Of a stretch of DNA of 35,148 nucleotides, positions 332 to 22,565 are shown in pieces (position 1 is the stretch's first letter; every line of letters begins with the position of its first letter). Under the pieces are notes generated by a model. It was not told the DNA's origin. It saw nothing but the letters and a program-made list of their open reading frames with translations, and searched no databases. A program made the translations under genes and the position numbers. The stretch comes from a virus (lineage: Duplodnaviria; Heunggongvirae; Uroviricota; Caudoviricetes): IMG/VR virus record IMGVR_UViG_2718218452_000003; one strand, 5' to 3'.

Positions 332-592
332 TTAATTCTGAGATAAGGGCAAACTCATCTGATTGTTCCCCCTGTGTGAAGCTGGCAGAGCCTGCCACGG
401 TATGTCTTCTGAAGAATGAACTTCTGAGGTGTGTTTTGATGTGAACTTATGAAAAGCTTCCAGTGTTGAGAAGCATACGCCGCATTCCAGGTTATTACAC
501 TGGTAATACTTTTGCCGCACGGTGTTTGAGTCATTTTCCGGACGACTGGTGCGGATACGGGCAGACGCGCCACAAAGTGGACAACGGAACAT
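332..592 (-). CDS. ogr: Ogr/Delta-family zinc-finger late-gene transcription activator
   Basis: N-terminus MFRCPLCG...YQCNNLECGVCF gives a C-x2-C-x22-C-x4-C zinc finger typical of P2 Ogr. GGAGG RBS precedes the ATG at 592. Sits beside gpD as in P2. Confidence 0.8.
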   Translation of the reverse strand: MFRCPLCGASARIRTSRPENDSNTVRQKYYQCNNLECGVCFSTLEAFHKFTSKHTSEVHSSEDIPWQALPASHRGNNQMSLPLSQN

Positions 593-1016
593 AGCGACCT
601 CCCTTAACGTGGTGTTTCTATTATTCTAAGTTGTACTAATACTGATTCCAACTAACTGCTTGCTTTGAGTGAAAACCAGAAGTTTGCAGTTGAATTTTCA
701 CTGAGTAAGTAGTCGAGATTGACTATGCACTAGTAGGATTATTCTACGTGATTGAAGGCAACTTGTTGGTATGTAGATGATTTTACTGGTGGCAGTGTTG
801 TAAGTTTTTATCTCCCCGGTTTGTCTTTGACGCTATCTACTAGTTATTTAGTCGTGCTAAAATAAAACGCTGATTGAGTTCCTTTGGGTTAGGTTGATAA
901 CTCTCAGAGACTTTGGGAGGTGTAAGATTCGAACTTAATCGCTAAGTTTCATACTCTTGGCACTCGTTTGCCTCTACAAAAGTATGTTTTTTAACACAAA
1001 TAAAAGAAGTGCATTT

Positions 1017-2429
1017 ATGAGTATTCAACATATAAAAGTTGGCAGTATATCAGAAATTATTGATCTATCATCTAATTCTGGCGAGCATGCTGATTCTCAT
1101 CCTTTTATCCTCTCGAAGAACTGTGTATGGGGAGAACAGGGGGCAGAAATATCAATTGAGAAATTGCGCCAAAATATTGAGCCCTGGCTAACAGCTCTCT
1201 TCCAATCAGAGCATTTAAATTTATTAATCGGTGCAGGCTTAAGCTCGGCTATTCAAAAATCAGCTACAGGTTTATCTCCAGTAGGGATGGGGTGGATTAA
1301 TGATTTAAAAGTATGTAAAAGCGAAATAGATGAATTTTCCACTCAGGCTGCAAAAGCTGCAGGTCGCGACAGAGGAAATATAGAAGACCAAATTAGAACT
1401 ATCAATGAACTTATTAAAGGTCTCGAAATTTTAACGGTGTTAAATACTCCTCAACCAGAAAATCCGCCACCTCCTTATTCTGCTTATAGAAACTTAAAAG
1501 CAGACTTGGGCGAGCTCAAAGGCGAGCTTTCTAGATGCTTGGGGGAGTTTTCTAAATCTATAATTAAAGGAGAATATTTAATCAAAACTGCTGAACCAGC
1601 CCGGAAAGAGGAAACTTTCAACTATCTAGTTAGTTTTTTGATGAGCTTTGCAAGTAGAACTGCCACTCGCGATAGGCTACATATCTTTACAACAAATTAT
1701 GACCGTATTATTGAAGTGGGTGCTGAGCTTGCTGGTTTAAGACTTATTGATCGCTTTGTAGGAAGTATTGCTCCAGTATTTCGATCCTCAAGATTAGAAG
1801 TTGATTATCATTATAATCCTCCTGGAATCCGTGGTGAACCAAGATACTTGGAGGGCGTGGCACGTTTTACTAAACTTCATGGTTCCCTTGATTGGCATGA
1901 ACAAAATAATGCGATTAGGCGCTTTGGCTTACCCTTTGGAGCACGTTCTGTTGAGCCGTTTTTGGAAGCCGAAGGTCATCAAAGCAATGGCTATGAAAAA
2001 CTGATGATTTACCCTAATTCAGTAAAAGACAGAGAAACAGCCGAGTATCCTTATGTTGAGCTATTTCGAGATCTGGCAGCAGCAACTAGCCGTCCAAATA
2101 GCACATTAGTCACTTATGGTTATAGCTTTGGTGATGAGCATATCAATAGAGTAATTGAAGACATGCTTACGGTACCTTCCACTCATATAGTAATAATAGC
2201 CTTTGGCGATCCACTTGGCAGAATTATGCGTTTCATTAGTAATAGTGGAAGAAAAGCACAGATCACCCTTTTAATGGGAGATCATTTAGGAGACTTCAAA
2301 ACTTTAGTTGATAACTATTTACCTAAACCAGCTATTGATAAAGCATCAATCAAGATGGCAGAGTTGCTCAAACAAAGAGGCTTTATGCAGTTCAAAGAGT
2401 TAGGTAATTCAGCCGAAGTTGAGGTATGA
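1017..2429 (+). CDS. SIR2-family (sirtuin-like) NAD-binding protein, putative NADase effector of a SIR2-HerA defence module
   Basis: Translation carries GAGLS (DNA 1230..1244), TTNYD (1689..1703) and KLHGS with the catalytic-type His (codon 1878..1880). Start chosen at ATG 1017; the track ORF begins at TTG 957. Stop overlaps the downstream gene start. Low GC compared with the phage backbone. Confidence 0.75.
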   Translation: MSIQHIKVGSISEIIDLSSNSGEHADSHPFILSKNCVWGEQGAEISIEKLRQNIEPWLTALFQSEHLNLLIGAGLSSAIQKSATGLSPVGMGWINDLKVCKSEIDEFSTQAAKAAGRDRGNIEDQIRTINELIKGLEILTVLNTPQPENPPPPYSAYRNLKADLGELKGELSRCLGEFSKSIIKGEYLIKTAEPARKEETFNYLVSFLMSFASRTATRDRLHIFTTNYDRIIEVGAELAGLRLIDRFVGSIAPVFRSSRLEVDYHYNPPGIRGEPRYLEGVARFTKLHGSLDWHEQNNAIRRFGLPFGARSVEPFLEAEGHQSNGYEKLMIYPNSVKDRETAEYPYVELFRDLAAATSRPNSTLVTYGYSFGDEHINRVIEDMLTVPSTHIVIIAFGDPLGRIMRFISNSGRKAQITLLMGDHLGDFKTLVDNYLPKPAIDKASIKMAELLKQRGFMQFKELGNSAEVEV

Positions 2430-2431
2430 CA

Positions 2432-4465
2432 ATGAGTTATTTACCAATAGAAAAAATAGAACAACTAAGAATTGGAACTGTTGAGTTTGTATCACCTAAT
2501 GAAATTAGGGTGTCTTTAGAGATTGATTCTCCTGATTCAGTATCACTTCAAGGTGGGGCGCCTCGTAATTTTCCTAGAATAAATAGTTATATTTTAATCC
2601 GTAGTGATGACGGGTTTCTTGTTGGGCAAGTTGAGTGGATTGCAATAGAAAACTCGCCATATCCCAAAAGAAGAGGCTTACAAGATTTTGGGTTGATAGA
2701 CCTTCCTTTCCCACTTAAAAAGCTCAGTATCAATCCAGTTGGTACATTGAGAGTTGATAGAAAAAACGAAGGTTTCAGGTTCACGAGAGGAACTGATGCT
2801 TTCCCTTCGGTTGGTGACTCTGTGCTTTTGCCTACTGACCGACAATTACAATCAATAATTGAATCAGGTGATAATAGAAGGGTAAAAATAGGGGATAGCC
2901 CCCTAGCTAACAATGCTGAAATAAAAGTAGACCCCGATAGACTTTTCGGACGACATATAGCTGTTTTAGGTAATACGGGTAGTGGTAAATCATGTTCGGT
3001 GGCCGGCTTAATTCAATGGTCTCTTGATGCTGTTTTACAACAGGGAAAATCTCCAAATGCTCGATTTATAATACTTGATCCGAACGGAGAATATAGTAGA
3101 GCTTTAGGGCCAGAATCAAGATATAAGGGTAAACTATTACGTGTAGAGGCTAACATCGATGTCGGAGAGATGGATCTTAAAGTACCTTCATGGTTATGGA
3201 ATAGTTCTGAGTGGGCTGCTTTCACTCAAGCAAGTTCAAAGGTGCAACTTCCTTTACTACGTCGTGCTTTGAGGGCAATGAGGAATAATCTTCTATCAGA
3301 AGATGATGTGAAAATTCAAGCCAAACGCTTTTGCGGTATCCTTCTTGTATCTATGAGACAGCAGGCAAGTCAAGGTCAGATATATGTGAATAGTGGATCT
3401 GCTAAAGGTTTGGTTGAAACTTTGGGTTCTTGGAGAGATAGTATTTCTATCTTAAACGAGAGAATTGTTGATAAATCGCTCGATAAGCTAATAAACACAA
3501 TAAATACGTATCTTTCTTCACGAAGTGGATCTTCTTGGCCAGCAAAGCCTGTTGTTTCCGAGATTGAGTTGTTGATTAATGGATTTAGAGATGCATATAC
3601 AGCTCTAGGGGGAGATGAACAAGAACTTCTTCCAAAAAGCGAAGATGCGCCTATGCGTTTTAAAGGCGATGATTTTGTCGCATATCTCGAAGCTCTGGCT
3701 CAAGAAACAGGTACAGAACAATTCGTGGAGTTTCTTTTGACTCGTATTCGAACAATGCTAGGTGACACTCGTATTAGTGCAGTAACCAATGATTCTGTAA
3801 AGCCTATAAGTTTAACTAATTGGTTAGACACTTTTCTCGGTAAAAATGAACAAGGATCTATAACTGTTATAGATTTATCTCTAGTACCAAATGAAATAAT
3901 TCATTTGGTAACAGCTGTAATTTCTAGGGTGGCTTTTGAAGCACTACAACGTTATCGAAGATTAAATGGAAGGCCGCTACCAACAGTTTTAGTTGCAGAA
4001 GAAGCGCATACGTTTATTAAACGTTACAAGGAAGATAGTGAAACTCAGTCAGTCTCTGATATATGTTGCAAGGTGTTTGAAAAGATTGCACGGGAAGGAA
4101 GAAAGTTTGGGCTAGGCCTTGTTGTTTCTTCCCAAAGGCCATCAGAGCTATCTCCGACGGTTTTATCTCAATGTAATACTTTTTTGTTGCACAGGATTAG
4201 TAATGATAGAGATCAAGAGCAAGTACATAGACTTGTTCCAGATAATATGAGAGGGCTGTTGAGAGAGCTGCCATCGTTACCATCTAGGCATGCTATTTTA
4301 CTTGGATGGGCTTCAGAACTTCCTGTTTTAGTTAGAATGAAAGAGCTTACTGAAAAACAACGACCGCAATCTGATGATCCTGATTTTTGGGATGTGTGGT
4401 CTGGCACTACAAAAGAACCTCGGAAAGTTAATTGGCAACAGATAGCTGATGATTGGCAAAGTTGA
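2432..4465 (+). CDS. HerA/FtsK-like P-loop ATPase, partner of the SIR2 protein
   Basis: Walker A VLGNTGSGKS (DNA 2969..2992), Walker B-like LVAEEAHTF and an SQRPSE motif, with an N-terminal barrel-like region. GAGG lies 8 nt upstream of ATG 2432; an alternative ATG at 2426 overlaps the SIR2 stop, suggesting translational coupling. Confidence 0.75.
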   Translation: MSYLPIEKIEQLRIGTVEFVSPNEIRVSLEIDSPDSVSLQGGAPRNFPRINSYILIRSDDGFLVGQVEWIAIENSPYPKRRGLQDFGLIDLPFPLKKLSINPVGTLRVDRKNEGFRFTRGTDAFPSVGDSVLLPTDRQLQSIIESGDNRRVKIGDSPLANNAEIKVDPDRLFGRHIAVLGNTGSGKSCSVAGLIQWSLDAVLQQGKSPNARFIILDPNGEYSRALGPESRYKGKLLRVEANIDVGEMDLKVPSWLWNSSEWAAFTQASSKVQLPLLRRALRAMRNNLLSEDDVKIQAKRFCGILLVSMRQQASQGQIYVNSGSAKGLVETLGSWRDSISILNERIVDKSLDKLINTINTYLSSRSGSSWPAKPVVSEIELLINGFRDAYTALGGDEQELLPKSEDAPMRFKGDDFVAYLEALAQETGTEQFVEFLLTRIRTMLGDTRISAVTNDSVKPISLTNWLDTFLGKNEQGSITVIDLSLVPNEIIHLVTAVISRVAFEALQRYRRLNGRPLPTVLVAEEAHTFIKRYKEDSETQSVSDICCKVFEKIAREGRKFGLGLVVSSQRPSELSPTVLSQCNTFLLHRISNDRDQEQVHRLVPDNMRGLLRELPSLPSRHAILLGWASELPVLVRMKELTEKQRPQSDDPDFWDVWSGTTKEPRKVNWQQIADDWQS

Positions 4466-4563
4466 GATGTTTAACCAATTTCCAGTGGGGCTATAAGCAG
4501 TGTCTCATATTTGAGATAGGAAGGAGCTGATTCCTTTCGATTGATACAGTACGAAATTATATA

Positions 4564-4589
4564 TGTCCGCTCTTGGCACAGAGCGGACA
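4564..4589. terminator. Hairpin between convergent HerA-like gene and gpD (9-bp stem TGTCCGCTC/GAGCGGACA)
   Basis: Perfect 9-bp inverted repeat with an 8-nt loop. AT-rich tract on the minus-strand side. Could terminate gpD or cargo transcripts. Confidence 0.4.
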
Positions 4590-4633
4590 GTCAGAAAACT
4601 GAAGGGGGTAGGCGTGCAATACATCTTAGCTGA

Positions 4634-5743
4634 TCAAGCTGTTTCTGCTATCCATTCCGGGATTTTTGCCTCAAGTTCAAGCTGCGTGGTAAAGCCGCTG
4701 TTATCAATGGTGTGCTCGGCTTTTGCAATAATCCAGTCCTGATTATCAATCTCGCTTTTAAATCCTGTTACCGTGCCATGCATTTCGGGGTAGAGTTCTG
4801 CTCGTCCACGTGCCAGCGTGATGGAGAATGATGCGGCTCCGCGTTGTAGTTGTTGCCACTTTGCCGCCGCTGCGCGTCTTGCTGCCTGCTCGTTCTGATA
4901 AGTCTTGCGTAACACAAACACATTGCCTTCCGCGCCTTCCATATAATCACCTTCACGGCTGCTGCTTTTCTCTTTTTTCGGTTTTGGCGGTTTGCGGCGT
5001 TTCACGCTGACTTTTTTCTTTTTCCCGTAATTAAGATCAAGCCAGTAAGCGCGTACCCCCGTATACGACTCGCGGTCAGCAATGCGGAACTGATGGCGAT
5101 CGCCGCTGCTGCGTGTGATGGCGAACGATGGCAACGGCTGGCCCTGTGCGTTCACGCCACCGCCGGGCATGATGAATAACAGATTACCGCTTTTTACTGT
5201 GGTGATTGCGCCCAGCATTTCCGCCATGCGCGTAAGGAAGGACATGTCACTTTCTTCGGTCTGGTCGGCGTGGTCGATTTCGATATCCATCAGCATTTCG
5301 CTGATTTGCGGTTTCAGACCGTACCGATGAGCGATGGCGGATACCACACGCTCAACGGTCACATCATGCCAGGACACCTCACGTTTAACGTTAAATTCAT
5401 CCCGAAAATCTGCGCTTCTGGCTGAAACAGTCAGCCTGTCCGGCGGTCCTTCGTGTGCGATTTCATCAACAATGTAAGTGCCTTTTTCTGTCAGCGGTTC
5501 GCCTTTCCAGCCAATGAGAACCGTCAGGCGCGCGCCCCGTGGCGCTAGCTGCAACTGACCATCCGCATCATCCAGCGTGATGGTGAGCTGGTCCGCCTCA
5601 AATCCCCGGTTGTCGGTCAGTGACAGGGTCATCAGGCGCTCTGCCACGCCTGACAGCGTTTTACCCTCCGCGAGAATATCAAAATCCGGCATTTTCACGG
5701 GGTCTGTGCCCTGACTGAGCAATTGCATGGTGGTATCGGTCAT
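4634..5743 (-). CDS. D: Tail protein D (late control gene D, baseplate hub-like)
   Basis: 370 aa from ATG 5743, with GGGAGGGA upstream. Includes a lysine-rich linker and a C-terminal ...TQLELE region typical of P2 gpD. The track ORF is extended upstream to 5875. Confidence 0.85.
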   Translation of the reverse strand: MTDTTMQLLSQGTDPVKMPDFDILAEGKTLSGVAERLMTLSLTDNRGFEADQLTITLDDADGQLQLAPRGARLTVLIGWKGEPLTEKGTYIVDEIAHEGPPDRLTVSARSADFRDEFNVKREVSWHDVTVERVVSAIAHRYGLKPQISEMLMDIEIDHADQTEESDMSFLTRMAEMLGAITTVKSGNLLFIMPGGGVNAQGQPLPSFAITRSSGDRHQFRIADRESYTGVRAYWLDLNYGKKKKVSVKRRKPPKPKKEKSSSREGDYMEGAEGNVFVLRKTYQNEQAARRAAAAKWQQLQRGAASFSITLARGRAELYPEMHGTVTGFKSEIDNQDWIIAKAEHTIDNSGFTTQLELEAKIPEWIAETA

Positions 5744-5900
5744 CTGTTCCCTCCCTGTGTGGCATGGTCGCATGTGCGTGCGGAGGGGGTTACTGCTTTT
5801 TGTTGTCGCCGGGTCGGGAGAACGGCGCAGGGGTGAGATTACGCGCGTGGTGGGTGATGATTGTTGCCGAATCATTTAACGGATACAAGGGGCTGAAGCT

Positions 5901-7085
5901 ATGAGTGAAACTCGTTTTCATGGTGCCCGTGTTACGGAAAATACCGACCTGGTAACAGCGATTAACGATGTTGATTCCAGCGTTATCGGTATCGTGGCAA
6001 CGGCGGATGATGCGGACGCGAAGCTGTTCCCGCTGAACAAGCCCACATTGCTGACCCGCGTCAATGACGTGCTGGGAAAATGCGGAACAACGGGGACGCT
6101 TTATCGTGCGCTTAAGGCCATCGCAGACCAGGTGAGCACAAAGGTGATCGTCGTTCGCGTGGCTGAACACAAAGAAGAAGACGGAAAGACGCAGGATCAA
6201 CTGGTTATCGGTGGTTCTGAGGATGACGGCAGCTATACGGGGATGTATGCGTTGCTTGTTGCAGAGCAGGATGAAAGCATCGGATACCGTCCGCGTATTC
6301 TGGCCGCGCCGGAGCTGGACACGGAGGCTGTAACAAAATCCCTGTGCGTGATTGCAGGTAAACTGCGCGCGTTTGTGTATGCCTCATGTCACGGCTGTAA
6401 CACGATGGCTGAGGCGATTACCTATCGCCAGAAATTCAACGAACGTGAGGTGATGCTCTTATGGCCGGACTTCATCGCCTACAACCCGAAAAGTGGCAAA
6501 AACGAAACGTTCCCCGCGCCTGCCTATGCGTGCGGCCTTCGTGCGTACATTGACCATGAGCAGGGGTGGCACAAATCACTGTCCAACGTTCCGGTTAAAA
6601 ATGTGCTGGGGATGTCGAGGCATGTGTTCTGGTCGTTGCAGGCCGAAGACAGCGATGCCAACAGCCTCAACAACAAAGAAATCACGACCATTATTCGTCG
6701 CAACGGGTTCCGCTTCTGGGGCAACCGCACACCGGAAACGAACGCCTACATCTTTGAGGTGTATACCCGAACCGCACAGGTGCTGGCTGATTCAATTGCG
6801 GAAGCGCAGTTTGAAACCATCGACAGTCCACTGACGCCTGCGAACGTGAAGGATGTTATCAGTGCCATCAGGGCAAAACTGGATTCGCTGGTTACTGCCG
6901 GGAAACTGATTGGCGCGGAGTGCTGGTATGACGTGGTGGATAACGGCACCACGGATTTACGTCAGGGGCGTGTGCGTATTCGCTACAAATATACGCCCGT
7001 TCCGCCACTGGAAGACATGGAGCTTTACCAGACGTTTACTGATGAATTCTTTGGTCCCGCATTTGCGGTGCTGGGAGGTGCCTGA
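5901..7085 (+). CDS. FI: Tail sheath protein FI
   Basis: 394 aa. Conserved sheath blocks such as FPLNKP, LRAF, WPDF, DQEQGWHK-like and RRNGFRFWGNRT match recalled P2 FI. Confidence 0.9.
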   Translation: MSETRFHGARVTENTDLVTAINDVDSSVIGIVATADDADAKLFPLNKPTLLTRVNDVLGKCGTTGTLYRALKAIADQVSTKVIVVRVAEHKEEDGKTQDQLVIGGSEDDGSYTGMYALLVAEQDESIGYRPRILAAPELDTEAVTKSLCVIAGKLRAFVYASCHGCNTMAEAITYRQKFNEREVMLLWPDFIAYNPKSGKNETFPAPAYACGLRAYIDHEQGWHKSLSNVPVKNVLGMSRHVFWSLQAEDSDANSLNNKEITTIIRRNGFRFWGNRTPETNAYIFEVYTRTAQVLADSIAEAQFETIDSPLTPANVKDVISAIRAKLDSLVTAGKLIGAECWYDVVDNGTTDLRQGRVRIRYKYTPVPPLEDMELYQTFTDEFFGPAFAVLGGA

Positions 7086-7597
7086 TGGCTGTACCAAAAC
7101 ATCTTCGCTTTTTTACGTTGTTTGTGGATGGTGAAAACGAAGTGGGTAAAGTGACATCCGTCACGCCGCCCAAACTGACGCGCAAAACCGACAGCTATCG
7201 TGGTGGTGGCATGATGGGGGCGGTAAGTATTGATCTCGGTCTGGACGACTCCGCGCTTGATGCGAGTTTTGTTATGGGGGGGGCTGTTCGTGCGCTGTTC
7301 CTTAAATATGGCGGCACGATTGACGGCACGCTGCTGCGTTTTGCGGGTGAATACTACACCGATGCAGAAAGCGATCTGTATGAAATCGAGATGCGCGGAC
7401 GTGTGACGGAAATTGATATGGGGGAAGCCAAACAGGGCGAAGCCACATCACACACTTACGCTGTCAAAAACACCTACTACAAGCTGAGCGTTAACGATCG
7501 CCCGCTGTGGGAAATCGACCTGTTGAACCACATCTACCGGAAGGACGGCAAGGACATTGTGCCTGACCGTATCCGTTCCGCGCTTGGGCTTGGCTGA
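7085..7597 (+). CDS. FII: Tail tube protein FII
   Basis: 170 aa. Start overlaps the FI stop (TGATG). Contains PPKLTRK...YRGGGM and GEAKQGE blocks like P2 FII. Confidence 0.9.
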   Translation: MAVPKHLRFFTLFVDGENEVGKVTSVTPPKLTRKTDSYRGGGMMGAVSIDLGLDDSALDASFVMGGAVRALFLKYGGTIDGTLLRFAGEYYTDAESDLYEIEMRGRVTEIDMGEAKQGEATSHTYAVKNTYYKLSVNDRPLWEIDLLNHIYRKDGKDIVPDRIRSALGLG

Positions 7598-7652
7598 TAA
7601 GTAATATGCAGGCGGCGCAGTGCGTCGCCTCTGACTGAAAAGGAGACAACTG

Positions 7653-8027
7653 ATGAAAGACATCGATACTGAAACCCGGAATAACACCGTGGCGGATGAT
7701 GTGACGGCAGGTGAGGATATGGCTGTCGAACGTGGCGTAAAACTTTCCCGGCCAATTGAGCGTGGTGCCGAAAAAATCACATATGTGGAAATCACCGGGG
7801 CTATTGAGCAGGCGGGATCCCTGCGTGGTCTGTCGCTGTCTGATGTGCTGAATCTGAAAGCGGATACCATGTTCACGCTGTTGCCTCGCGTGACCTCGCC
7901 ACGACTGGATGAAGTGATGATTAAAAAAATGTCGTCACGCGATTTTATTCAGTTGTGCGCTGTGGCTGTAAATTTTATGAGCGAGCCAGACTCTGGCGCG
8001 AAGAGCGTGCAGGAGACGGCAGCGTAA
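7653..8027 (+). CDS. E: Tail assembly chaperone E (zero-frame product)
   Basis: 124-aa ORF in the conserved position between the tube and tape-measure genes. Confidence 0.75.
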   Translation: MKDIDTETRNNTVADDVTAGEDMAVERGVKLSRPIERGAEKITYVEITGAIEQAGSLRGLSLSDVLNLKADTMFTLLPRVTSPRLDEVMIKKMSSRDFIQLCAVAVNFMSEPDSGAKSVQETAA

Positions 8028-8191
8028 TTACCCTGGTGTGCTTTGAGCACATCGAAGATCTGGTGGCGGATATTGCCGCCATTTTTAACTGGTCGCCCGC
8101 CGAAATCTTCATGATGACGCCCGGCGAAGTGGTTAGCTGGCGTGAGCGGGCGGCACTTCGCAGCGGGAATGTAGATAATGAAGACTCTTGA
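7653..8191 (+). CDS. E': E+E' tail chaperone fusion made by programmed -1 frameshift at A-run 7923..7929
   Basis: A run of seven A at 7923..7929 in the E frame (ATT AAA AAA ATG). The -1 frame is open from 7925 to the stop at 8189..8191 and overlaps the T start. This mirrors P2 E/E' and lambda G/GT. Confidence 0.65.
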
Positions 8192-10985
8192 TATCCGGGT
8201 CGCTTTCAGCGCCGTTGACAGGCTGACCCGGCCTGCCGAAAACGCCCGCCGCCTGATGGGGCAGTTTGGTGACTCCATCCAGCGAACGCAGGGGGCGATC
8301 AAAAATCTCGAGCGTCAGGCGCGTTCATTTGAGCGCGCCCGTGACGCTGTCAGTAAAGCGGATGCGGGCATCGTGAAAGCACGACGCCAGCTTAACGCCC
8401 TTAATCAGTTACAACGCACGGGTACAGTGCTCAGCGAAAAACAACAAAAGCTGATGCAGCAGTTAAGCACCCGGCTTGAACGCCTGAATGAATCGCGCAC
8501 ACGGGAAATTCAGAAAATGCGGGAGCTTGGCGGAGAACTGAAACGCCACGGCATTTCCCTGACAGGCAGCGATAACACCATTCAGCAGGCCATCAGACGC
8601 ACCGAACAATACAACAACCAGCTTGAACGCGAACGGCAGGCGCTTGCGCGTGTAACGCGGGCGCGTGAGCGGTATTCGCGCGCGCAGGAAACAGCGGGAA
8701 AACTGAAAACAGGTGGTGCGCTGGCAATTGGTGCGGCAGCGGCGGGCGGCTATGCTGCCGGGCGTTTTTTGCAGCCTGCGATCGGGTTCGGGAAAGAGAT
8801 GTCCCGCGTTCAGGCACTGACGCGAATCGACAAAAACAGCCCGCAGTTTAAGGCGCTGCGTGAGCAGGCGTTAAAACTTGGCTCTGAAACGCAGTTCACC
8901 GCAGGCGATGCCGCCAGTGGGCAGGCATTTCTTGCAATGGCTGGCTTCACACCGCAGGCCATTCAGGCTGCGCTCCCTGGCGTACTGAGCATGGCAACGG
9001 CTGGCGGTATGGACCTCGGTGAGACGGCGGATATTGGCTCAAATATTCTGACGCAGTTCGGTCTTTCTGCTGACCAGATGGACCGGGTCGGCGACACACT
9101 CACCGCAGCGTTTACCCGTACCAACACTGACCTTCGCGCACTGGGTGAAACCATGAAATATGCAGGTCCGGTGGCGGGTAAGCTGGGAATATCGCTGGAG
9201 CAGGCCGCAGCGATGGCGGGCGTGCTGGCGAATATGGGTATCAGGGGGAGTGATGCTGGTACGGCAATGCGTGCCAGCCTGGCTCGTCTGGCATCACCGC
9301 CAAAGGCGGCAGCAGAGGCGCTGAAAGAGCTTGGCGTGTCTGTCTCGGATGCCGGGGGCAAAATGCGCCCGATGGAGGATGTGCTGGCTGACCTTTATAA
9401 AGCTACCCGCAAATACGGGGAAGTTGACCGGGTATCGTTCTTTAAGGACATTGCCGGAGAAGAGGCTTTCACATCATTTATGGCCCTCGTTGATGCGGCA
9501 GGTGACGGCTCCTTACCCAAACTGAGAAAAGAACTTGAAGGCGCGCGCGGTGAGGCTGAACGCACGGCAAAGGTTATGGCCAACAACCTTGACGGCGATC
9601 TGAAATCACTCAGCAGTGCATGGGAAGGGTTGCGCATCCGCATTGCAGATCTGATTGACGGTCCGCTGCGTTCTGTCACGCAGTGGCTCACGCGTGTGGT
9701 ATCAAAGGTGACGGCGCTGGCGCAGGCCCATCCCGCACTGACGCGCCAGCTACTGATTGCAGGCGGTGCACTGCTGGCAATGACTGCAACGGTTGGCTCG
9801 TTGTCGCTGGCTATTGGTGTGTTTGCTGGCCCGCTGGCAAAACTGCGTCTTGGTTTTTCCCTCCTGACCGGATCAATGAATGCTGTCAGGGTTCTGCCAG
9901 CACTATGGGGAATGGTGACGGGTTCCGTTTCTTTACTGGGAGGCGCTATCGGGGCGTTGTTCAGTCCGGTTGGTCTTATCGTGGTTGCGCTTGCCGGAGC
10001 TGCCGTTCTTATCTGGAAATACTGGGATCCCATCAGGGCATTTTTTGCCGGAGTGTTCAGCGGGATTATGGAAAGGCTGACCCCGTTGCGCGAAACCTTT
10101 GAACGGTTTGGTCCTGTTTTTGACGCAATCGGGAGTGGGATCAGCCAGGTGTTTAACTGGTTTAAATCGCTGCTGTCACCGATGGAGTCCAGCAAGGAAA
10201 CTCTGGATAAATGTACCAGTGCTGGCGAGATATTCGGTAACGTTCTTGGCGGTGCGTTACAACTTGTTCTGACACCTGCAAAAATGTTGCTGGATACGCT
10301 GGCGTGGATACTTGAAAAGCTTGGTGTGCTTCCGGATGAAGCGGAAAGGGCGCGCAAGAAAATCGAAGACGCACAGCGTGCGGCCATTCTTCAGGACAAG
10401 GTTGCCTTGCTTCAGGGGGACCTGGCGAAAATCAATCCGCCGAAGCCTGTGGAAAATGGCAATGGCACCGGAGGTGATAACCCCAAAGACAATAAACTGC
10501 TCACAGACAGCAATACCGGTACGCTGCGCAGACTCAGCAAAATTGCTGATAACACAGGTAAGCTGGTTGATGAGACGAAAAAACGCATTGGCCCCGGCGA
10601 TATTGTCTTTAAGAACCTGCCCCGCGCACTTGCTGTTCGTGGGGAGTGGCAGGAGCGGAAGATTGCACAGGTCAGTAAGCCTGCTTCCGCAATCAACATC
10701 ACACCTGTGGTCCCGGCTCCGCTGCCTCCGGCGCTGGTCCCTGTTGTTGCGGCCAGCTCCCGCCCGGTGGCGGAGGCCATACGATCGCCAGTGGCATCAG
10801 TTCCTGCAACTTCCCGTAACCGGGAGCCTGCTGTCTCCGGATTTTGCGGTGAAATTCATGTTCATCTGCATAACGTTGTTACGCAGAATCCCCGCGAACT
10901 GGCGAAACTGGTCGGTGAAATGGTCAGGGCAGAAATGGAACGGCGCGCCCGTGCCGGGCGTGGCAGTTTTTACGATAAAGATTGA
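8178..10985 (+). CDS. T: Tail tape measure protein T
   Basis: 935 aa. Coiled-coil N-terminal region, Gly/Ala-rich hydrophobic central segments, in the conserved position after E/E'. Confidence 0.9.
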   Translation: MKTLDIRVAFSAVDRLTRPAENARRLMGQFGDSIQRTQGAIKNLERQARSFERARDAVSKADAGIVKARRQLNALNQLQRTGTVLSEKQQKLMQQLSTRLERLNESRTREIQKMRELGGELKRHGISLTGSDNTIQQAIRRTEQYNNQLERERQALARVTRARERYSRAQETAGKLKTGGALAIGAAAAGGYAAGRFLQPAIGFGKEMSRVQALTRIDKNSPQFKALREQALKLGSETQFTAGDAASGQAFLAMAGFTPQAIQAALPGVLSMATAGGMDLGETADIGSNILTQFGLSADQMDRVGDTLTAAFTRTNTDLRALGETMKYAGPVAGKLGISLEQAAAMAGVLANMGIRGSDAGTAMRASLARLASPPKAAAEALKELGVSVSDAGGKMRPMEDVLADLYKATRKYGEVDRVSFFKDIAGEEAFTSFMALVDAAGDGSLPKLRKELEGARGEAERTAKVMANNLDGDLKSLSSAWEGLRIRIADLIDGPLRSVTQWLTRVVSKVTALAQAHPALTRQLLIAGGALLAMTATVGSLSLAIGVFAGPLAKLRLGFSLLTGSMNAVRVLPALWGMVTGSVSLLGGAIGALFSPVGLIVVALAGAAVLIWKYWDPIRAFFAGVFSGIMERLTPLRETFERFGPVFDAIGSGISQVFNWFKSLLSPMESSKETLDKCTSAGEIFGNVLGGALQLVLTPAKMLLDTLAWILEKLGVLPDEAERARKKIEDAQRAAILQDKVALLQGDLAKINPPKPVENGNGTGGDNPKDNKLLTDSNTGTLRRLSKIADNTGKLVDETKKRIGPGDIVFKNLPRALAVRGEWQERKIAQVSKPASAINITPVVPAPLPPALVPVVAASSRPVAEAIRSPVASVPATSRNREPAVSGFCGEIHVHLHNVVTQNPRELAKLVGEMVRAEMERRARAGRGSFYDKD

Positions 10986-10991
10986 GGAGTC

Positions 10992-11486
10992 ATGGCCATG
11001 ATGATGATCTATGGCATGTTTGTTTTTGAGCTGCGCACGCTGCCGCATCAGCAGTTACAGCAAAACAAAAGCTGGCGGCATGTGAAAAATGAACGCGTTA
11101 ACCGTTCAGCAAGCTGGCAGTATATCGGTGCAGGTGATGATCGCATCGTTCTTTCTGGTGTGCTTTATCCTGAAATTACAGGTGGCGAAGTGTCGCTGTC
11201 GCTGCTGACCACGCAGGCGTATACAGGACGACCCTGGCCTTTGATTGATGGCGTCGGGCAGATTTACGGCATGTATGTCCTGACCGGAACGAATACGATC
11301 CGTTCCGAGTTTGATCGCTACGGTAAGGCGAAAAAGATAGAATTTTCACTGACCCTTGAACGCTGTGATGAGGATTTGCGGGAGCGCCTGCAATCCTCAT
11401 CGTTCAGCGATATGCTGTCCGGCTTCAAAGATAAGGTGGCGTCATCCCTTAACAGTGCGGTCAGTTCTGTTAAGGGACTGTTCTGA
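10992..11486 (+). CDS. U: Tail protein U
   Basis: 164 aa following T, with GAGGAG RBS. N-terminal FVFELRTLPHQQLQ...SWRH resembles P2 gpU. Confidence 0.85.
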   Translation: MAMMMIYGMFVFELRTLPHQQLQQNKSWRHVKNERVNRSASWQYIGAGDDRIVLSGVLYPEITGGEVSLSLLTTQAYTGRPWPLIDGVGQIYGMYVLTGTNTIRSEFDRYGKAKKIEFSLTLERCDEDLRERLQSSSFSDMLSGFKDKVASSLNSAVSSVKGLF

Positions 11487-11530
11487 TTTAACGCAAATCA
11501 CAAATAGTTAGATAAACAGAAATAACGATA

Positions 11531-11549
11531 AGGCCCGATATTCGGGCCT
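11531..11549. terminator. Bidirectional intrinsic terminator between convergent U and G (stem AGGCCCGA/TTCGGGCCT)
   Basis: GC-rich 8-bp stem with a 3-nt loop. T-rich on the plus side (TTCGTTTATTC) and A/T-rich on the minus side. Confidence 0.6.
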
Positions 11550-11554
11550 TTCGT

Positions 11555-12094
11555 TTATTCTGGTTGATCAGGGAACGTAACGGGTAATTCAGTGGTATCA
11601 GTGGTCTCAACTTGTTGCACGTACCGCATCCAGCGCATCAGTTGTTGCTTATCTGAATCACTGATAATCCCTAATGCAAGCTGGGTCTGCCAGAACTGCG
11701 TTTTTTCTCTGGCCTGCTGTAATAACCTTTGTTTCTGGTTTTCAGCCTGCAAGCGTTGCTCTTCTTCGGTATACACACGTTTAATGACTGAGCCATCTTT
11801 AAACATCCAGTTACCTGAAATATCAGCGCGTCGGTTTGCTGTAATATTAGGCAACTCGACAACACTTTTTCCTTCCGGGCAAATTGCAGTTACATCCGTT
11901 TGCACGTCGCATATGACATTATTTTCATCATATGCAATCTTTATGGTGTCTGGCTGAAAGTTCTTTTGTTCCTCATACCAGTTTTTACCATCTTCAGCGA
12001 ATAACCAGACAACGCCGGAGTTTTTAGTTAACAGGTACTGTTCTTTTGTTTTTGGATTGCCCGGTTTTATATTTTTTAAATGCATCATAATCAA
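11555..12094 (-). CDS. G: Tail fibre assembly protein G
   Basis: 179 aa immediately downstream of, and overlapping, the tail fibre gene. C-terminal region is typical of Tfa chaperones. Confidence 0.8.
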   Translation of the reverse strand: MIMMHLKNIKPGNPKTKEQYLLTKNSGVVWLFAEDGKNWYEEQKNFQPDTIKIAYDENNVICDVQTDVTAICPEGKSVVELPNITANRRADISGNWMFKDGSVIKRVYTEEEQRLQAENQKQRLLQQAREKTQFWQTQLALGIISDSDKQQLMRWMRYVQQVETTDTTELPVTFPDQPE

Positions 12095-14154
12095 ACACTC
12101 GATACGTTATACCATGTACCATTAATATTTTTTTGAATTGGTCTGTAATAAACACCACCAATATTATCGGCAGAGTTTGAGCCTGTATCCTGAACGATAA
12201 TCCCGGTATATGCGCAACCAGATGGAGCCTGATGCGTCCATGTTGTACCGTTATTTGCTGGTTTATAGGATGACGCACCACCAAGTCTAATATCCCGGAC
12301 ATAGCGTGAATCAAAGTTGCCATAGTTAGATGGTGATACCTGCCCGTTAACAGCAAAAGTGATGCTGTTATCTGTATTTCTCTGACTGTAAAAATGCCAG
12401 CCTGCATCATCACCTAATTCAGCCACCACCGGACGACTTGCGTTTCCCCACAAATTGAATGCGGCTTCCTTCGTGGATGTATTGCTGCTGCTGACCGTGA
12501 ACTTTTTCCCGCTACCGGCACGTACTTTGGTACTTGAGACAATATCACCTGTAACACTCAGGCCATGCCCCATTGACACTCCGCCATTGGCGTTATTGAT
12601 AGTCAGCGGTCTTAAGCCGTTCCATGTCCCAAATTTATCGCCAGAGGCCGTCAGCATTAAATATGTGCTGCCGCCATCATTCCTGATAAAGAATCCATAA
12701 TTGCCATAAGCAATGCGCAGACCATTAGCACTGAGTGATGTAATCTCACCTCTTGAACGGAGACCATAAGCGGAGCTGAGTGATAATTCTTCCTGAGCGT
12801 CATAGTTTCCTGTCGCCCAGCGAATTACCCCGCCCTGTACTGTTTCATGCCAGATAGTGTCTCCTTCTCCACCACGAAACTTTCTGAGATATTTTTTGCC
12901 GCCTCTGGTGCCTGAACATAAGGCCGTAGACATATAGGCATTCTGGCTTCCGCCATCCTGATTAATCGTTCCGGTCATTGAGTCGCCCTGACGATTCCAG
13001 TCACGACGCCAGCCGGGGGAGTAGCCGTCCCCATGATTAATGTAAGTGAATTGCGCGCTGGTTGTACCGCCACCACTTGATGTTGTCGGCGTGGTCACTC
13101 GGATAGTGATTGCAGATTTAGTTCCCATGACCTCGACGACACAACCAGCCAGGTGGATATCACCACATCCGGTATCCGTAATGATTTTGTTATTTGCATA
13201 TGACCATGAGCCTTTGCACATCCAGTACGGATGATTAAATGCACCACGGGAATCCAGCCATTCAATAAACTGAGCGGTTGTCCAGTTTCCGGCTTCAGTG
13301 CTCAAAGCGCCGCTATAAGCACGACAGGCACCGATATTTTTCGTGAAGGTATCCTTTCCCGGAATATCCGCACCGTTCTGATCTTTCTGAAGACGTTTTT
13401 CAGCATTGTCATAGGCAGACTTCACCGCTTTTGATGTTGCGGCCAGCGTTTCAGAATCACTGTTGGTGGCGCTACTGAGCTGGACAAGACCTTTTCGCGC
13501 TGTAGTGGCATCCTGTGCAGTGTATTTCCCGTTAGCAAGGTCATAGGCTGCCTTGACCGCTTTCGGCGTTGCGGCCAGTGCTTCAGACGTGCTGTTGGTG
13601 GCGCTACTGAGTTGAACAAAGCCTTTTGCGGTCAGCGAGGCGTCCGGGTGACGTCGTGACTGTTCATGTTCTTTCAGTTTGTCATTCACGTAATCCACTG
13701 TGGCCATAACCATGGTGTTATCCACGGTAAGCGCCACGGTGGCAGTGCTGGATACGCTCAGAATGGTGCGAAATGTTTGTGCACGTCCGGATCCTTCGGC
13801 AACGGCTGGCTTGTAACTTTCGGCAGTATTGCCCACCGCGATTAAATCGCCGTGCTCATCAAATACACCAATTTCCCGGATCCAGAATCCGCCCGTTTCA
13901 GGAGGAATAACCAGCTCCGCAATAATGCGGTTCTGATGTGTTGCGTCCAGGATGACGCGATTAACAGTATGTCGCCACACCTCATGCACCAGACGGGTCT
14001 GCTTACTGTCTGGTGTGGGCAACGTGCCGCCACCGTCGCCCACGGCCATGTGAGTCAGGCGGACAGGATTACCATCTGGCGCGGCTGCCTGAGCTAATTT
14101 TTTGGCACCCGTATCGGTGATAACGGTTTTAAATTTTCGTGTTGTGGTACTCAT
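12091..14154 (-). CDS. H: Tail fibre protein H
   Basis: 687 aa. Conserved N-terminal baseplate-attachment region, internal tandem KGxVQLSSATNS...KAVKxAYD repeats, Gly/Ser-rich distal domain. Confidence 0.85.
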   Translation of the reverse strand: MSTTTRKFKTVITDTGAKKLAQAAAPDGNPVRLTHMAVGDGGGTLPTPDSKQTRLVHEVWRHTVNRVILDATHQNRIIAELVIPPETGGFWIREIGVFDEHGDLIAVGNTAESYKPAVAEGSGRAQTFRTILSVSSTATVALTVDNTMVMATVDYVNDKLKEHEQSRRHPDASLTAKGFVQLSSATNSTSEALAATPKAVKAAYDLANGKYTAQDATTARKGLVQLSSATNSDSETLAATSKAVKSAYDNAEKRLQKDQNGADIPGKDTFTKNIGACRAYSGALSTEAGNWTTAQFIEWLDSRGAFNHPYWMCKGSWSYANNKIITDTGCGDIHLAGCVVEVMGTKSAITIRVTTPTTSSGGGTTSAQFTYINHGDGYSPGWRRDWNRQGDSMTGTINQDGGSQNAYMSTALCSGTRGGKKYLRKFRGGEGDTIWHETVQGGVIRWATGNYDAQEELSLSSAYGLRSRGEITSLSANGLRIAYGNYGFFIRNDGGSTYLMLTASGDKFGTWNGLRPLTINNANGGVSMGHGLSVTGDIVSSTKVRAGSGKKFTVSSSNTSTKEAAFNLWGNASRPVVAELGDDAGWHFYSQRNTDNSITFAVNGQVSPSNYGNFDSRYVRDIRLGGASSYKPANNGTTWTHQAPSGCAYTGIIVQDTGSNSADNIGGVYYRPIQKNINGTWYNVSSV
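13409..13645. repeat. Tandem imperfect repeat (2 x ~105 bp, period 132 bp) inside tail fibre gene H
   Basis: Plus-strand text tcataggcagacttcaccgctttt...ggtggcgctactgag recurs 132 bp later with a few substitutions. Encodes the duplicated 44-aa fibre motif. Confidence 0.7.
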
Positions 14155-14156
14155 GC

Positions 14157-14720
14157 TTAATCGTCCGGATAAATGGTAATGACTTCACCGTCGTAAGTTG
14201 CTGCCGCCGCGAAAATATCCCCCGGGATCTCCTGAATGATATTCAGCCCTGTCATGTGGCGGCTGACCGGGCGGGCATCAGCAATCAACCGCTCCATTTC
14301 CAGATACATTTCCTCCGTCACGCCACTGTCCAGCGTGCCGACTTCAACGGTAAATGTTCCCGGTTCTCCGCCGAACTCCCACCACTCAGACACACGAATG
14401 AGGTATCCCAGCGGCTCAATGGCCCGGCGCAGTGCGCTGATGGTCCCTTTGTGTCGGTGTATCAGCCATGCATCACGAATCACCTGTCGCTTTGTCTCTT
14501 CCGGCCAGTTGCGATCCCAGCGGTCAACGGAAAATGCCCAGGCGAGATAAGGCAGCAGATGCACCGGGCAGGTGTCCGGCGACCACAGCGTGTTGAGGTC
14601 TACCGGAATGTCTGTAATGCGCGTTCCGACAGCTTCGGCACAACGCATGAAATTGCTGGCTGATGGCGGTAACAGTGAATTACTCATTACGCCCACCTTC
14701 GCTGATGGTGAATGACTCAC
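14157..14720 (-). CDS. I: Baseplate/tail protein I
   Basis: 187 aa; position and size match P2 gpI between J and H. Confidence 0.8.
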   Translation of the reverse strand: MSHSPSAKVGVMSNSLLPPSASNFMRCAEAVGTRITDIPVDLNTLWSPDTCPVHLLPYLAWAFSVDRWDRNWPEETKRQVIRDAWLIHRHKGTISALRRAIEPLGYLIRVSEWWEFGGEPGTFTVEVGTLDSGVTEEMYLEMERLIADARPVSRHMTGLNIIQEIPGDIFAAAATYDGEVITIYPDD

Positions 14721-15576
14721 AGCGCGCCGCCTGTATGTCGCTGATGGCCATATTTTGTGTGGGTTCGATTATCTCCACGCGTTGCACACCGTGCACATGC
14801 AGTGCGGCAGCAATGGCTGACAACGCCACATCCTGACCGATAAGCCCCTGCTCAGACAGCCACTTCCTGAACGACGATTCCGCCGCGGCCAGAATAGGTT
14901 CGGATTCCGGGCCGGGGTAAAAGTACAGTTTTGCATTCAGCCGCCATGTCACGATTCTGGCACTCTGTACGGTCAGGCGGTCGGCCACCGGGCGGGTATC
15001 CTCTGCATTCAGAACGGCGCGAACGGTATTAAGCAACGCCTCCGTTGCTGTGCCGTCGCCCTCAGTGGACAGGATGGAAACCGTCACGTTGGCCGGAGAC
15101 GGGCTGATGGCCCGCGCATCGCGTACCAGACCGCTGGCGCTGCGTGCAAAATACTCGTATGCACCTGACGGGCCAGCAACACTCAGACCGTCATATGCCC
15201 GTTGCGCCCGTAGTCTCAGCGAGGTGTCACTTTCCATCACTGCGTCGGTGGTATCCGTTGCCGGAGTGATAACCAGGCGCTTTGTGTTCATATTGCCCGC
15301 GAGGTTGTCCAGGTCTGTCCCGGCGCTGTGGCTTAGCATGCAGGCGCGTGCACCCTCATTGACCCGCTGGCGTAACAGCATTTCACGAAACGACATGGTT
15401 TGAGCGATAACGTTAAGGGGTTCCGATTCCAGCTCCAGCGCGGCGGAAACGGCTTCACGCTGTTCGGCGGGATAGGACGCAATCATCATGGCCTTTGTGT
15501 CAGCCAGAATTGCCTCAAAGTCAGGCTCCGCGATGATGGCGGGGTCCGGTAACTGTGAAAGGTCAACGGCAGGCAT
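14680..15576 (-). CDS. J: Baseplate assembly protein J
   Basis: 298 aa; position and size match P2 gpJ. Confidence 0.85.
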   Translation of the reverse strand: MPAVDLSQLPDPAIIAEPDFEAILADTKAMMIASYPAEQREAVSAALELESEPLNVIAQTMSFREMLLRQRVNEGARACMLSHSAGTDLDNLAGNMNTKRLVITPATDTTDAVMESDTSLRLRAQRAYDGLSVAGPSGAYEYFARSASGLVRDARAISPSPANVTVSILSTEGDGTATEALLNTVRAVLNAEDTRPVADRLTVQSARIVTWRLNAKLYFYPGPESEPILAAAESSFRKWLSEQGLIGQDVALSAIAAALHVHGVQRVEIIEPTQNMAISDIQAARCESFTISEGGRNE

Positions 15577-15579
15577 GAT

Positions 15580-15930
15580 TTACTCCCTCAGCGTGATGGT
15601 TAATTCAACATTCTGCATGGTCTGCATGACAGTGCCCGACAGCGTCACCCCGGCGCGGCCTCCTGCCTTCCAGACAACGTCGATAGCGTCCAGGGCAATG
15701 CGGGGTTCCCATCGTGTCAGCGCAATCACGGCAGCACTCATGCATTGCAGACGCGTGGTGTTATTCATGGGTTCGTCAATCAAATCAGGCACAAGGCTGC
15801 CATATTCCCGTCGCATAACCCGGCTTGCCAGCGGGGTGGTCAGGATGTCCCTGACTGACTGTTTCAGGTGCTCCATATCGTTCAGGTTTCCCGTTCCGTC
15901 CGGGTTCATTCCTGTGTAGCGGGTTGTCAC
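15580..15930 (-). CDS. W: Baseplate wedge protein W (gp25-like)
   Basis: 116 aa; position and size match P2 gpW. Confidence 0.85.
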   Translation of the reverse strand: MTTRYTGMNPDGTGNLNDMEHLKQSVRDILTTPLASRVMRREYGSLVPDLIDEPMNNTTRLQCMSAAVIALTRWEPRIALDAIDVVWKAGGRAGVTLSGTVMQTMQNVELTITLRE

Positions 15931-17600: not shown

Positions 17601-17877
17601 GGTTGTTATCCTCGTTGTTCAGTCGTTGCAGCCTGCGCTGTTCCAGTAATTCAATGGCCCGTTTATCCGCGTTACAGGTTTCCAGTGCATCCAGAAGGCG
17701 GTCGCCCCATATACCGAGATTTCCCCATGTGGGAGTATCAGGGAAGGGGGGAGGCGTTACCGGTATGGTCAGCGTCTGCGGTATAAGCCGGACTGACGGC
17801 GCTGTCCGTGGCGCGTTCTGCGTGCCTGCGCAGCCTGTCAGTAAAACGAGCGTCAGGCAAAGCGTGGGCGCATTCAT
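17587..17877 (-). CDS. lysC: o-spanin (LysC/Rz1-like outer-membrane lipoprotein)
   Basis: Signal peptide and lipobox LLTGC followed by a proline-rich segment. Its 5' part overlaps the 3' end of the i-spanin gene in another frame. Confidence 0.65.
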   Translation of the reverse strand: MNAPTLCLTLVLLTGCAGTQNAPRTAPSVRLIPQTLTIPVTPPPFPDTPTWGNLGIWGDRLLDALETCNADKRAIELLEQRRLQRLNNEDNNHAEN

Positions 17878-18854: not shown

Positions 18855-18856
18855 TG

Positions 18857-21552: not shown

Positions 21553-21574
21553 AAAAATTTGCTCCTTTGTCTTA

Positions 21575-22411: not shown

Positions 22412-22565
22412 AGTTTTTGCCCCTCTGACTGGTTCTTCAGTCATGATGGCAAAGCGTAACAGGCTGATACAAAGGGCTTTTGTTGTAAGAAAACGGCCAG
22501 AACAGGGGGTTAAGGAGAACAGTTTCGCGCGCGGGTAATCTTCCTGTAATTACTCAGGGGGAGCA

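Follow-up and report, generated by a model that had tools for sequence, protein, structure and literature searches.

An inverted FI-U tail operon typical of a large P2-type lineage, with a predicted Ogr-dependent promoter region shared by D and FI

In phages P2 and 186, the tail genes FI-FII-E-E'-T-U-D are transcribed from PF/pJ as one operon in which D is the last gene, and this operon runs co-directionally with V-G and ogr. By the standard description of Ogr/Delta/B promoters, a TGT-N12-ACA dyad has its centre some 55 nt 5' of the start point, and transcription requires both the activator and the alpha subunit of RNA polymerase. TGT-N12-ACA represents the consensus of four P2 late promoters (PMC3931495). 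At P2 PF the centre of the site lies 47 nt from the -10 element and 57-59 nt from the start point. A different layout is seen where late genes diverge, namely that the start points of P2 PP and PO are 111 bp apart and flank one annotated activator site, and that a single B site is annotated in 186 for pV and p12 together.

The DNA analysed here (35,148 nucleotides, referred to as the window) is a P88-like prophage (Xuanwuvirus, Peduoviridae), to which the sequence of Escherichia coli C7 (NZ_CP010240.1) is 100% identical. By blastn, P88 aligns with the window in five collinear blocks that cover about 26.5 kb of the 35.1 kb at 91-98% identity. Since the overall similarity to P88 is roughly 72-73%, the window lies narrowly above the approximately 70% genome-wide similarity to the type phage that, together with collinear gene order, is used to assign phages to Xuanwuvirus. 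The gene-order trait of the genus, with D divergent from FI and FI-U opposite to V-G, is present, and the core proteins are 96-100% identical to their P88 counterparts (tblastn). In the members compared (P88, P884B11, 520873, 500465-2, PhiR44_2, Chuche and Citrobacter phage phiSM), D on the minus strand followed by FI-FII-E-T-U on the plus strand, the 157-bp gap between them and the dyad described below are all as in the window. The differences to P88 lie elsewhere: P88 carries a DNA invertase and an invertible tail-fibre segment between U and G, both of which the window lacks, the G module and the C-terminus of H differ, a 4.0-kb SIR2-HerA cassette sits in the D-ogr spacer of the window, and the two integrases share just 44% identity (tblastn). 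An Rfam scan of the whole window returned zero family matches.

Genes were assigned with Pfam and by tblastn against P2, 186, RE2010, P88, Kp4860-2 and Kp4847-1, which gave the following map of the region:

332..592, minus strand: ogr, late-gene activator with a C4 zinc finger (Pfam Ogr_Delta, E=4.4e-14)
4564..4589, minus strand: terminator-like hairpin 3' of D with a 10-bp stem and, after it, a T-rich tail
4634..5743, minus strand: gpD, baseplate hub/tail protein D, monocistronic in the window (Pfam Phage_GPD, 2e-17)
5901..7085, plus strand: FI, tail sheath (Pfam sheath domains; 45% identity to P2 FI)
7085..7597, plus strand: FII, tail tube (Pfam Phage_tube, 2e-45)
7653..8027, plus strand: E, tail chaperone (35% identity to P2 E)
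8178..10985, plus strand: T, tape measure (Pfam PhageMin_Tail, 4e-58)
10992..11486, plus strand: U, tail protein (Pfam Phage_P2_GpU, 2e-37)
11530..11550, both strands: bidirectional intrinsic terminator between U and G, one 9-bp-stem hairpin with a T-rich tail each way (inverted repeat I1)
11555..12094, minus strand: G, tail-fibre assembly, end of the O...G transcription direction (Pfam Caudo_TAP, 2.5e-33)

H, with tail-fibre domains (Pfam), and I, J, W, V, S, R, N and O are likewise on the minus strand, P and Q on the plus strand (tblastn against P2 and 186), and the S and V genes share 4 nt (16505-16508). The ORF at 7955-8191 that overlaps E is probably the E' frameshift extension, as judged by comparison with P2 and with gp46 of P88. 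Two other minus-strand frames considered for ogr, 355-573 and 8-271, gave nothing in Pfam, and 332-592 is the correct one. The D protein is 47% identical to that of P2 and 186 and 96% identical to that of P88 (tblastn). Its start is the ATG at 5743-5741, which is preceded by a GGGAGGG ribosome-binding site; the extension of the frame to 5875 in the ORF list is unlikely to represent the start. The gap between D and FI is consequently 157 bp (5744-5900).

Compared with P2 and 186, the F operon thus consists of the same genes in the same internal order from FI to U, and an Ogr-type activator is present, whereas the FI-U block runs the opposite way, with D as a separate, divergent gene and U convergent with G. 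An earlier reading of the sequence without database searches (hereafter the sequence-only reading) had placed FI-U on the plus strand and D, ogr and G to O on the minus strand, and had called the block inverted relative to these genes, unlike in P2. Pfam and tblastn bear this out, with FI-FII-E-T-U at 5901-11486 as the sole segment that is flipped against the P2 map (tblastn). Its further statements that D diverges from FI across 157 bp and that U converges on G at a two-way terminator are also correct, the former exactly so given the D start at 5743, the latter inasmuch as the hairpin at 11530-11550 was called on both strands and stands between the stops of U (11486) and G (11555) in the terminator scan. 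As D is severed from the F operon, we also agree that it needs a promoter of its own.

The arrangement was, however, not found to be peculiar to this genome. Thirteen phage records are collinear with the inverted block at 93-98% identity; in P88 and the other Xuanwuvirus phages, window positions 4639-11497 are matched as a single collinear piece in this identity range, and an annotated D is divergent from the sheath gene in P88, phiSM, phiT5282H, SEN4 and ST16-OXA48phi5.4. P88 and phiSM are inducible phages able to form plaques (PMC5285337, PMC6456863). Among 5426 complete E. coli genomes, 1102 carry at least 80% of positions 4400-12200 at one collinear place, and about a quarter (1357) contain an intact fragment spanning the D/FI junction. 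These 1357, with EDL933 and EC958 among them, come from 1373 genomes with any match to the junction. The inverted order is common to five Peduoviridae genera (Xuanwuvirus, Reginaelenavirus, Reipivirus, Novemvirus and Senquatrovirus). In a survey of GTDB species-level loci of Enterobacterales, limited to the best 80 of 433 loci, all 62 loci with a D identity of 60% or more are inverted and all 18 with a D identity of 53% or less are canonical. Since only the best 80 loci were kept, canonical relatives are under-represented in the survey. The canonical order is also found in P2, 186 and RE2010, and the xenorhabdicin xnp1 locus, in which one paper places a variable region between the sheath gene and the main fibre gene, may by this placement be canonical as well. 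With phages, E. coli genomes and species-level loci sharing the order, the inversion is lineage-typical, and the idea, implicit in the sequence-only reading, of an unusual rearrangement or an artefact of this genome has to be given up; such sharing among close relatives is what that reading had itself named as refuting it. The gene order itself is plainly public, being visible in annotated genomes; in the searchable literature on P88, Xuanwuvirus, Peduoviridae gene order and xenorhabdicin, we found no discussion of the inversion or of the predicted bidirectional D/FI promoter.

A neighbour-joining tree of D separates inverted and canonical loci into a clean bipartition, which fits one ancient inversion. 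The canonical order would be ancestral and the inverted order derived, judging from the canonical order of the sampled distant phages on an unrooted tree.

How D is transcribed in this arrangement can be approached from the 157-bp gap, for which the following elements are predicted, together with a related site between O and P:

5764..5769, minus strand: GACCAT as read on this strand, predicted D-promoter -10, with the dyad centre 46 nt away
5801..5823, no strand assigned: predicted Ogr-binding dyad TGTTGT-N12-AGAAC (GTTGT-N12-AGAAC at 5802-5823) for the D and FI promoters, one of two exact copies in the window
5856..5861, plus strand: GATGAT, predicted FI-promoter -10, with the dyad centre 46 nt away
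22481..22503, no strand assigned: O/P-gap copy of the dyad, the second in the window, exact match

A strict TGT-N12-ACA scan of the D/FI and O/P gaps of the window returned no match, and the AGAAC variant emerged from comparing the two gaps with each other. TGTTGT-N12-AGAAC occurs exactly twice in the window and in none of 100 shuffles. The D/FI site reads TGT-N12-AGA, one mismatch from TGT-N12-ACA, and the start points around it are predicted; sister genera carry an exact TGT-N12-ACA at the equivalent D/FI position. The right half of the dyad varies by genus (AGAAC, ACAAC, AGACC, AGACC and ACAAC in the five genera) and agrees between the D/FI and O/P gaps within each genome. Across the clade, D/FI gaps keep the same kind of dyad, and a footprint of 56 unique gaps consists of the dyad and -10-like blocks that are mirror-symmetric at 46 nt. 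The strict form TGT-N12-A[CG]A is absent at the expected place in 6 of 62 loci, four of which have TGTTGT-N12-AGGCC. On the FI side, GATTAT, GAATAT or GATGAT occupies the same columns in the 56 sequences, and the D-side -10 lies within a conserved block (ATGaTTtCAcGCGCGCG on the plus strand, GCGCGCG..GAAATCAT on the D strand), with GACCAT itself matching TATAAT at just three of six positions. By analogy with P2 PF, transcription of D is predicted to start at about 5755-5757, giving a short leader of about 12-14 nt, and that of FI at about 5868-5870. In the O/P gap, the P-side hexamer is TAATCT (22536-22541) and the O-side hexamer CATCAT (22448->22443), spaced as in D/FI. No consensus sigma-70 promoter was detected in the D/FI gap, and no exact dyad match was found upstream of V as a third site of the PV type. 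Two matches with two mismatches (14623-14645 and 18053-18075) were rejected, being intragenic with no gene start downstream.

Together with the Ogr/Delta C4 zinc-finger activator encoded at 332-592 on the minus strand, these features point to the D/FI gap as a probable second bidirectional Ogr-dependent late promoter region of the P2 PP/PO type. The FI -10, predicted in the window, is preceded by a GTTGT-N12 dyad at a distance of about 46-47 nt, as in P2 and 186, and as in P2 PP/PO and 186 p12/pV, one dyad stands between divergent late genes, here with a predicted symmetric geometry. The distance between start points is 111 bp for PP/PO and a predicted 112-115 bp for D/FI. The differences are that the pair consists of P and O in P2 and of D and FI here, where it is predicted from sequence conservation alone, and that the right half-site of the window lineage, AGAAC, is unlike that of PP/PO and p12/pV. 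The claim that late-gene regulation is rewired therefore holds for the transcription units, which are unlike those of P2, but overstates a modest change that resembles the known bidirectional Ogr/B-site design.

Three other explanations were considered. For an inversion that is recent and private to this genome, or for mis-assembly at both junctions, we found no support beyond the contrast with P2 and 186 that raised the question; identical junctions in independent isolates and assemblies (13 phages, 1102 and 1357 E. coli genomes) and an order common to many genera at 60-80% protein identity leave it practically negligible. Only marginally better placed is a programmed invertible segment, flipped for example by a Gin/Cin-type invertase as in P88. 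Segments of the Gin/Cin/Hin type are flanked by inverted crossover sites, have an invertase close by and are found in both orientations within populations. A DNA invertase does adjoin U in P88, phiSM and relatives, so that a recombinase gene stands beside one breakpoint in those phages. The window, however, has no invertase, and its match to P88 ends at 11497 and restarts in the fibre genes. The P88 invertase is annotated beside alternative tail-fibre and fibre-assembly genes. Such a position is usual in arrangements of the Mu G type. Among the inverted-repeat pairs found in 4400-12200, none brackets FI-U, the longest being short, imperfect and intragenic, and neither the window nor P88 contains, even with six mismatches allowed, the Mu-like crossover site that is annotated in 186. 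A single orientation is moreover seen in the junctions of 1357 of 1373 E. coli genomes and in 62 of 62 loci of the clade (among the best 80 of 433).

More serious, albeit still unlikely, is that the order is lineage-typical while the D promoter is Ogr-independent, i.e., constitutive or driven by another factor, the dyad serving the FI operon only. Relative to FI, the dyad points the same way as that of P2 PF, its TGTTGT half being the distal one, and the D side has a weak -10 and a very short leader. Against this stands that GCGCGCG..AATCAT on the D strand is kept in 56 divergent gaps, that the D-side distance mirrors those seen for FI and, in the O/P gap, for P, that the gap has no detectable consensus sigma-70 promoter, and that D, as a structural tail protein, is required simultaneously with FI-U.

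From our point of view, a single ancient FI-U inversion, since fixed, with D and FI sharing one Ogr-dependent site, is the best reading, and we give it a probability of about three in four. FI-FII-E-T-U would have flipped a single time, in a distant ancestor from which a large P2-type branch of enterobacteria descends, with breakpoints at G/FI and U/D, after which the order became fixed. The flip would have brought the F-operon promoter and its predicted Ogr dyad beside the 5' end of D. From one shared dyad centred near 5812.5, D would then be transcribed leftwards and FI-U rightwards, with dyad-bound Ogr bringing in RNA polymerase at a weak -10 element located 46 nt away on either side. The FI-U and O...G transcripts would both stop at 11530-11550, those of D at 4564-4589. 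Directly observed are the gene order and its distribution, the conservation of the motif and its agreement between the two gaps; that Ogr binds the dyad, where transcription starts and that D depends on Ogr is what we infer.

The significance is mainly one of housekeeping: inverted FI-U reliably marks a large P2-type branch that includes many Enterobacterales prophages, and should for this reason be flagged neither as a rearrangement nor as an assembly error. The sole point of biological interest is the predicted shared promoter, through which a symmetric activator site may have allowed an inversion to split an operon while co-regulation was kept, making this a small, testable case.

A more far-reaching proposal, to which we give somewhat less than even odds, is that the inversion made the palindromic Ogr site of PF bidirectional, that D and ogr form a positive-feedback loop in P88-type phages, that the half-sites co-evolve with the Ogr of each genus, and that the SIR2-HerA cassette uncouples ogr in the window. 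In P88, D and ogr are 42 nt apart with no terminator between them, and on these grounds they may form a short Ogr-activated unit in P88-type phages. If true, this would be a compact D-ogr positive-feedback loop apart from the 5.6-kb sheath-to-U operon, and the SIR2-HerA insertion, bringing its own terminator, would have cut the ogr of the window from the loop. The terminator of D at 4564-4589 indeed falls within the insertion (633-4638), which is missing from P88. The ogr counterpart of P88 is an unannotated ORF (34476-34733, 93% identity by tblastn), and immediately 5' of ogr in the window, a sigma-70-like TTGGAA-17-TAGAAT is located at 651->623 on the minus strand.

The window is a complete P2-type prophage of 35.1 kb, running opposite to the standard map of P2. 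The assignments below rest on ORF calls, Pfam and tblastn comparison.

1-141, minus: hok/gef toxin (Pfam 4e-7), at the window's very edge, beyond ogr
332-592, minus: ogr (Pfam)
957-4465, plus: SIR2 and HerA pair, 39% G+C
4634-5743, minus: D (Pfam)
5901-11486, plus: FI, FII, E, T, U
11555-22444, minus: G, H, I, J, W, V, S, R ... N, O
22566-25363, plus: P, Q
25888-26244 and 26244-26651, plus; 26818-27153, minus: ORFs of a second low-G+C stretch
27533-28492, minus: ParM
28569-31391, minus: replication protein A
33813-34124, plus: repressor
34024-35148, plus: integrase

When the window's proteins were compared by tblastn with P2, 186 and the Fels-2-like RE2010, FI-U was the sole late block out of P2 order and orientation, flipped as one unit with breakpoints at G|FI and U|D. 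The strands proposed in the sequence-only reading (FI-U plus; D, ogr and G minus) agree with Pfam matches for D, FI, FII, T, U, G, H and ogr. The most probable start codon of D is the ATG at 5743, with a GGGAGGG ribosome-binding site ahead of it, so that the D|FI gap indeed spans 5744-5900 (157 bp), and the bidirectional terminator postulated between U and G was recovered as a hairpin with a 9-bp stem at 11530-11550, lying between the two stop codons and with a terminator score on both strands. Since read-through from O...G would have to cross this terminator and then 5.6 kb of antisense sequence, D needs its own promoter, as had been claimed, and this should lie within the gap. The earlier observation was accurate in every element, but the order is shared across a branch of the Peduoviridae and is ordinary for a very common phage lineage, an outcome that the sequence-only reading itself had listed as its refutation.

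Window positions 4639-11497 form a single collinear alignment, with 93-98% identity, to the Xuanwuvirus phages P88, P884B11, 520873, 500465-2, PhiR44_2, Chuche and Citrobacter phage phiSM; in their annotated order, too, D is divergent from the sheath gene. Both P88 and phiSM can be induced and are infectious (PMC5285337, PMC6456863), so the gene order is fully functional. The E. coli C7 chromosome contains the window at 100% identity, and at least 80% of 4400-12200 is found in one collinear place in 1102 of 5426 complete E. coli genomes. With a 751-bp probe spanning D|FI, 1373 E. coli genomes gave some match and 1357 of these, EDL933 and EC958 among them, had the junction intact, which in practice excludes both an assembly error and a flip-flop polymorphism. 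An inversion or mis-assembly private to this genome is likewise excluded by the distribution of the inverted order across phages and genomes. A programmed invertible FI-U segment is excluded as well, given that no inverted repeats flank the block, that the window has no invertase and that one orientation alone occurs across more than 1400 genomes.

The flipped block extends to Reginaelenavirus (Klebsiella phages Kp4860-2 and 3LV2017), Reipivirus (Kp4847-1, ST16-OXA48phi5.4), Novemvirus (Enterobacter phage phiT5282H) and Senquatrovirus (Salmonella phage SEN4). In a D-protein alignment scan of one genome per GTDB species, considering the best 80 of 433 loci, FI was the next gene upstream of D, on the other strand, at every one of the 62 loci with a D of at least 60% identity to that of the window, whereas at the 18 loci with a D of at most 53% identity U was directly upstream on the same strand (18/18). 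The hosts of the inverted loci comprise Salmonella, Citrobacter, Enterobacter, Klebsiella, Kosakonia, Pantoea, Erwinia, Pectobacterium, Brenneria, Serratia, Yersinia, Hafnia, Edwardsiella, Morganella, Providencia, Xenorhabdus, Photorhabdus and others. D sequences split cleanly into 62 inverted and 21 canonical ones in a neighbour-joining tree, and the simplest reading would be one old inversion passed down through the whole branch. The inverted order is already known in the sense that it stands in public genomes; our literature search found no paper commenting on it or on the bidirectional D|FI promoter predicted here.

No consensus sigma-70 promoter was found in the 157-bp gap. It does hold the predicted Ogr-binding dyad TGTTGT-N12-AGAAC (5801-5823), which recurs exactly only once more in the window, both strands considered, in the O|P gap (22481-22503), and was absent from 100 shuffles. 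The dyad is a variant, one base off, of TGT-N12-ACA, the consensus element of Ogr-dependent late promoters (cited in PMC3931495), and shares its GTTGT left half with P2 PF, P2 PV and 186 pJ. Across five genera the right half varies, yet it matches between both gaps within each genome (AGAAC in Xuanwuvirus, ACAAC in Reginaelenavirus and Senquatrovirus, AGACC in Reipivirus and Novemvirus), as would be expected were both sites read by a single phage-specific protein. With the dyad as anchor, 56 unique D|FI gaps align in three conserved islands amid otherwise divergent sequence, namely the dyad, GATTAT, GAATAT or GATGAT 46 nt to the FI side, and GCGCGCG..(A)AATCAT on the D strand 46 nt to the D side. 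P2 PF has its -10 at 47 nt, and its mapped start at 57-59 nt, from the centre of the site; by analogy, D would be transcribed from about 5755-5757 and FI from about 5868-5870. In P2, 111 bp separate the starts of P and O, with one annotated activator site between them, and the 186 record annotates a single B-binding site for pV and p12. Conservation and geometry suggest that a known bidirectional late-promoter design is present in a second copy in the D|FI gap. A serious rival, albeit an unlikely one, is that the dyad serves FI only and D is driven by an unrelated promoter; the weak D-side -10 (GACCAT) and the short predicted leader speak for it, but the D-side block is conserved and mirror-symmetric.

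At the second dyad, the predicted O-side -10 (CATCAT, 22448->22443) shares bases with the start given for O in the ORF list (22444); the true start is probably 11 codons downstream, as in the P88 annotation (278 aa). With a 4-nt overlap of S and V and no third dyad site matching PV found in the window, the late genes may form four units (P-Q, O...G, FI...U and D) from two control regions. P88 has a D-ogr spacer of 42 nt that contains no hairpin, so transcripts from the predicted D promoter would reach ogr; similarly, the P2 record assigns the terminator behind ogr to the F operon as well. The P88 RefSeq record leaves this ogr homologue (34476-34733) unannotated.

The window's D-ogr spacer is occupied by a 4.0-kb cassette (633-4638), inserted exactly at the 42-nt spacer of the P88 backbone, which carries the anti-phage defence pair SIR2 and HerA (957-2429 and 2426-4465; PADLOC 3e-155 and 2e-252) and brings a further terminator-like hairpin 3' of D (4589-4564). 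At its edge, ogr kept its TAGAAT -10 and gained a TTGGAA -35. Among 5426 complete E. coli genomes, 19 have the cassette in identical context, and two other loci, L010 and L056, have different insertions of about 1.4-1.5 kb at this position, which would make D|ogr a possible cargo hotspot of the inverted clade. L010 is a 226-kb contig (NZ_JBQPOM010000071.1, 'Vagococcus sp. WN89Y') carrying this enterobacterial prophage region at 95-99% protein identity, most likely a contamination of this Gram-positive assembly. A second stretch without P88 match (25813-26821, 42-44% G+C) lies between Q and the ParM side; the exact TGTTGT-type TGT-N12-ACA motif TGTTGTGTCGCTGCGACA just upstream (25621-25638) may be a chance match or a cargo promoter responding to Ogr.

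Between U and G (window 11487-14154 versus P88 24856-27589), there is a DNA invertase plus an invertible segment of alternative tail-fibre/chaperone genes in P88, phiSM and their relatives; the window has neither. Its module of G and the H C-terminus is only 70-79% similar to fibre/chaperone genes of a Yersinia phage and of Mu, P1 and P7. In the public phiSM record (Citrobacter phage Shae_phiSM, OR565851.1, 2294-4745), product names are off by one gene: the label 'late control gene D protein' sits on the sheath gene, and 'ogr/Delta-like zinc finger family protein' on the D homologue.

The hok/gef gene has a similarly placed counterpart in P88 (gp52), and Rfam returned no Sok-type antisense RNA at the gathering threshold. 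The full-length actin-like segregation protein ParM (StbA_N 4e-82, ParM C-terminal domain 2e-67) adjoins the replication gene, as in P88. Tail-block matches lie on plasmids at 132 of 2322 E. coli places, which may hint at plasmid-borne relatives.
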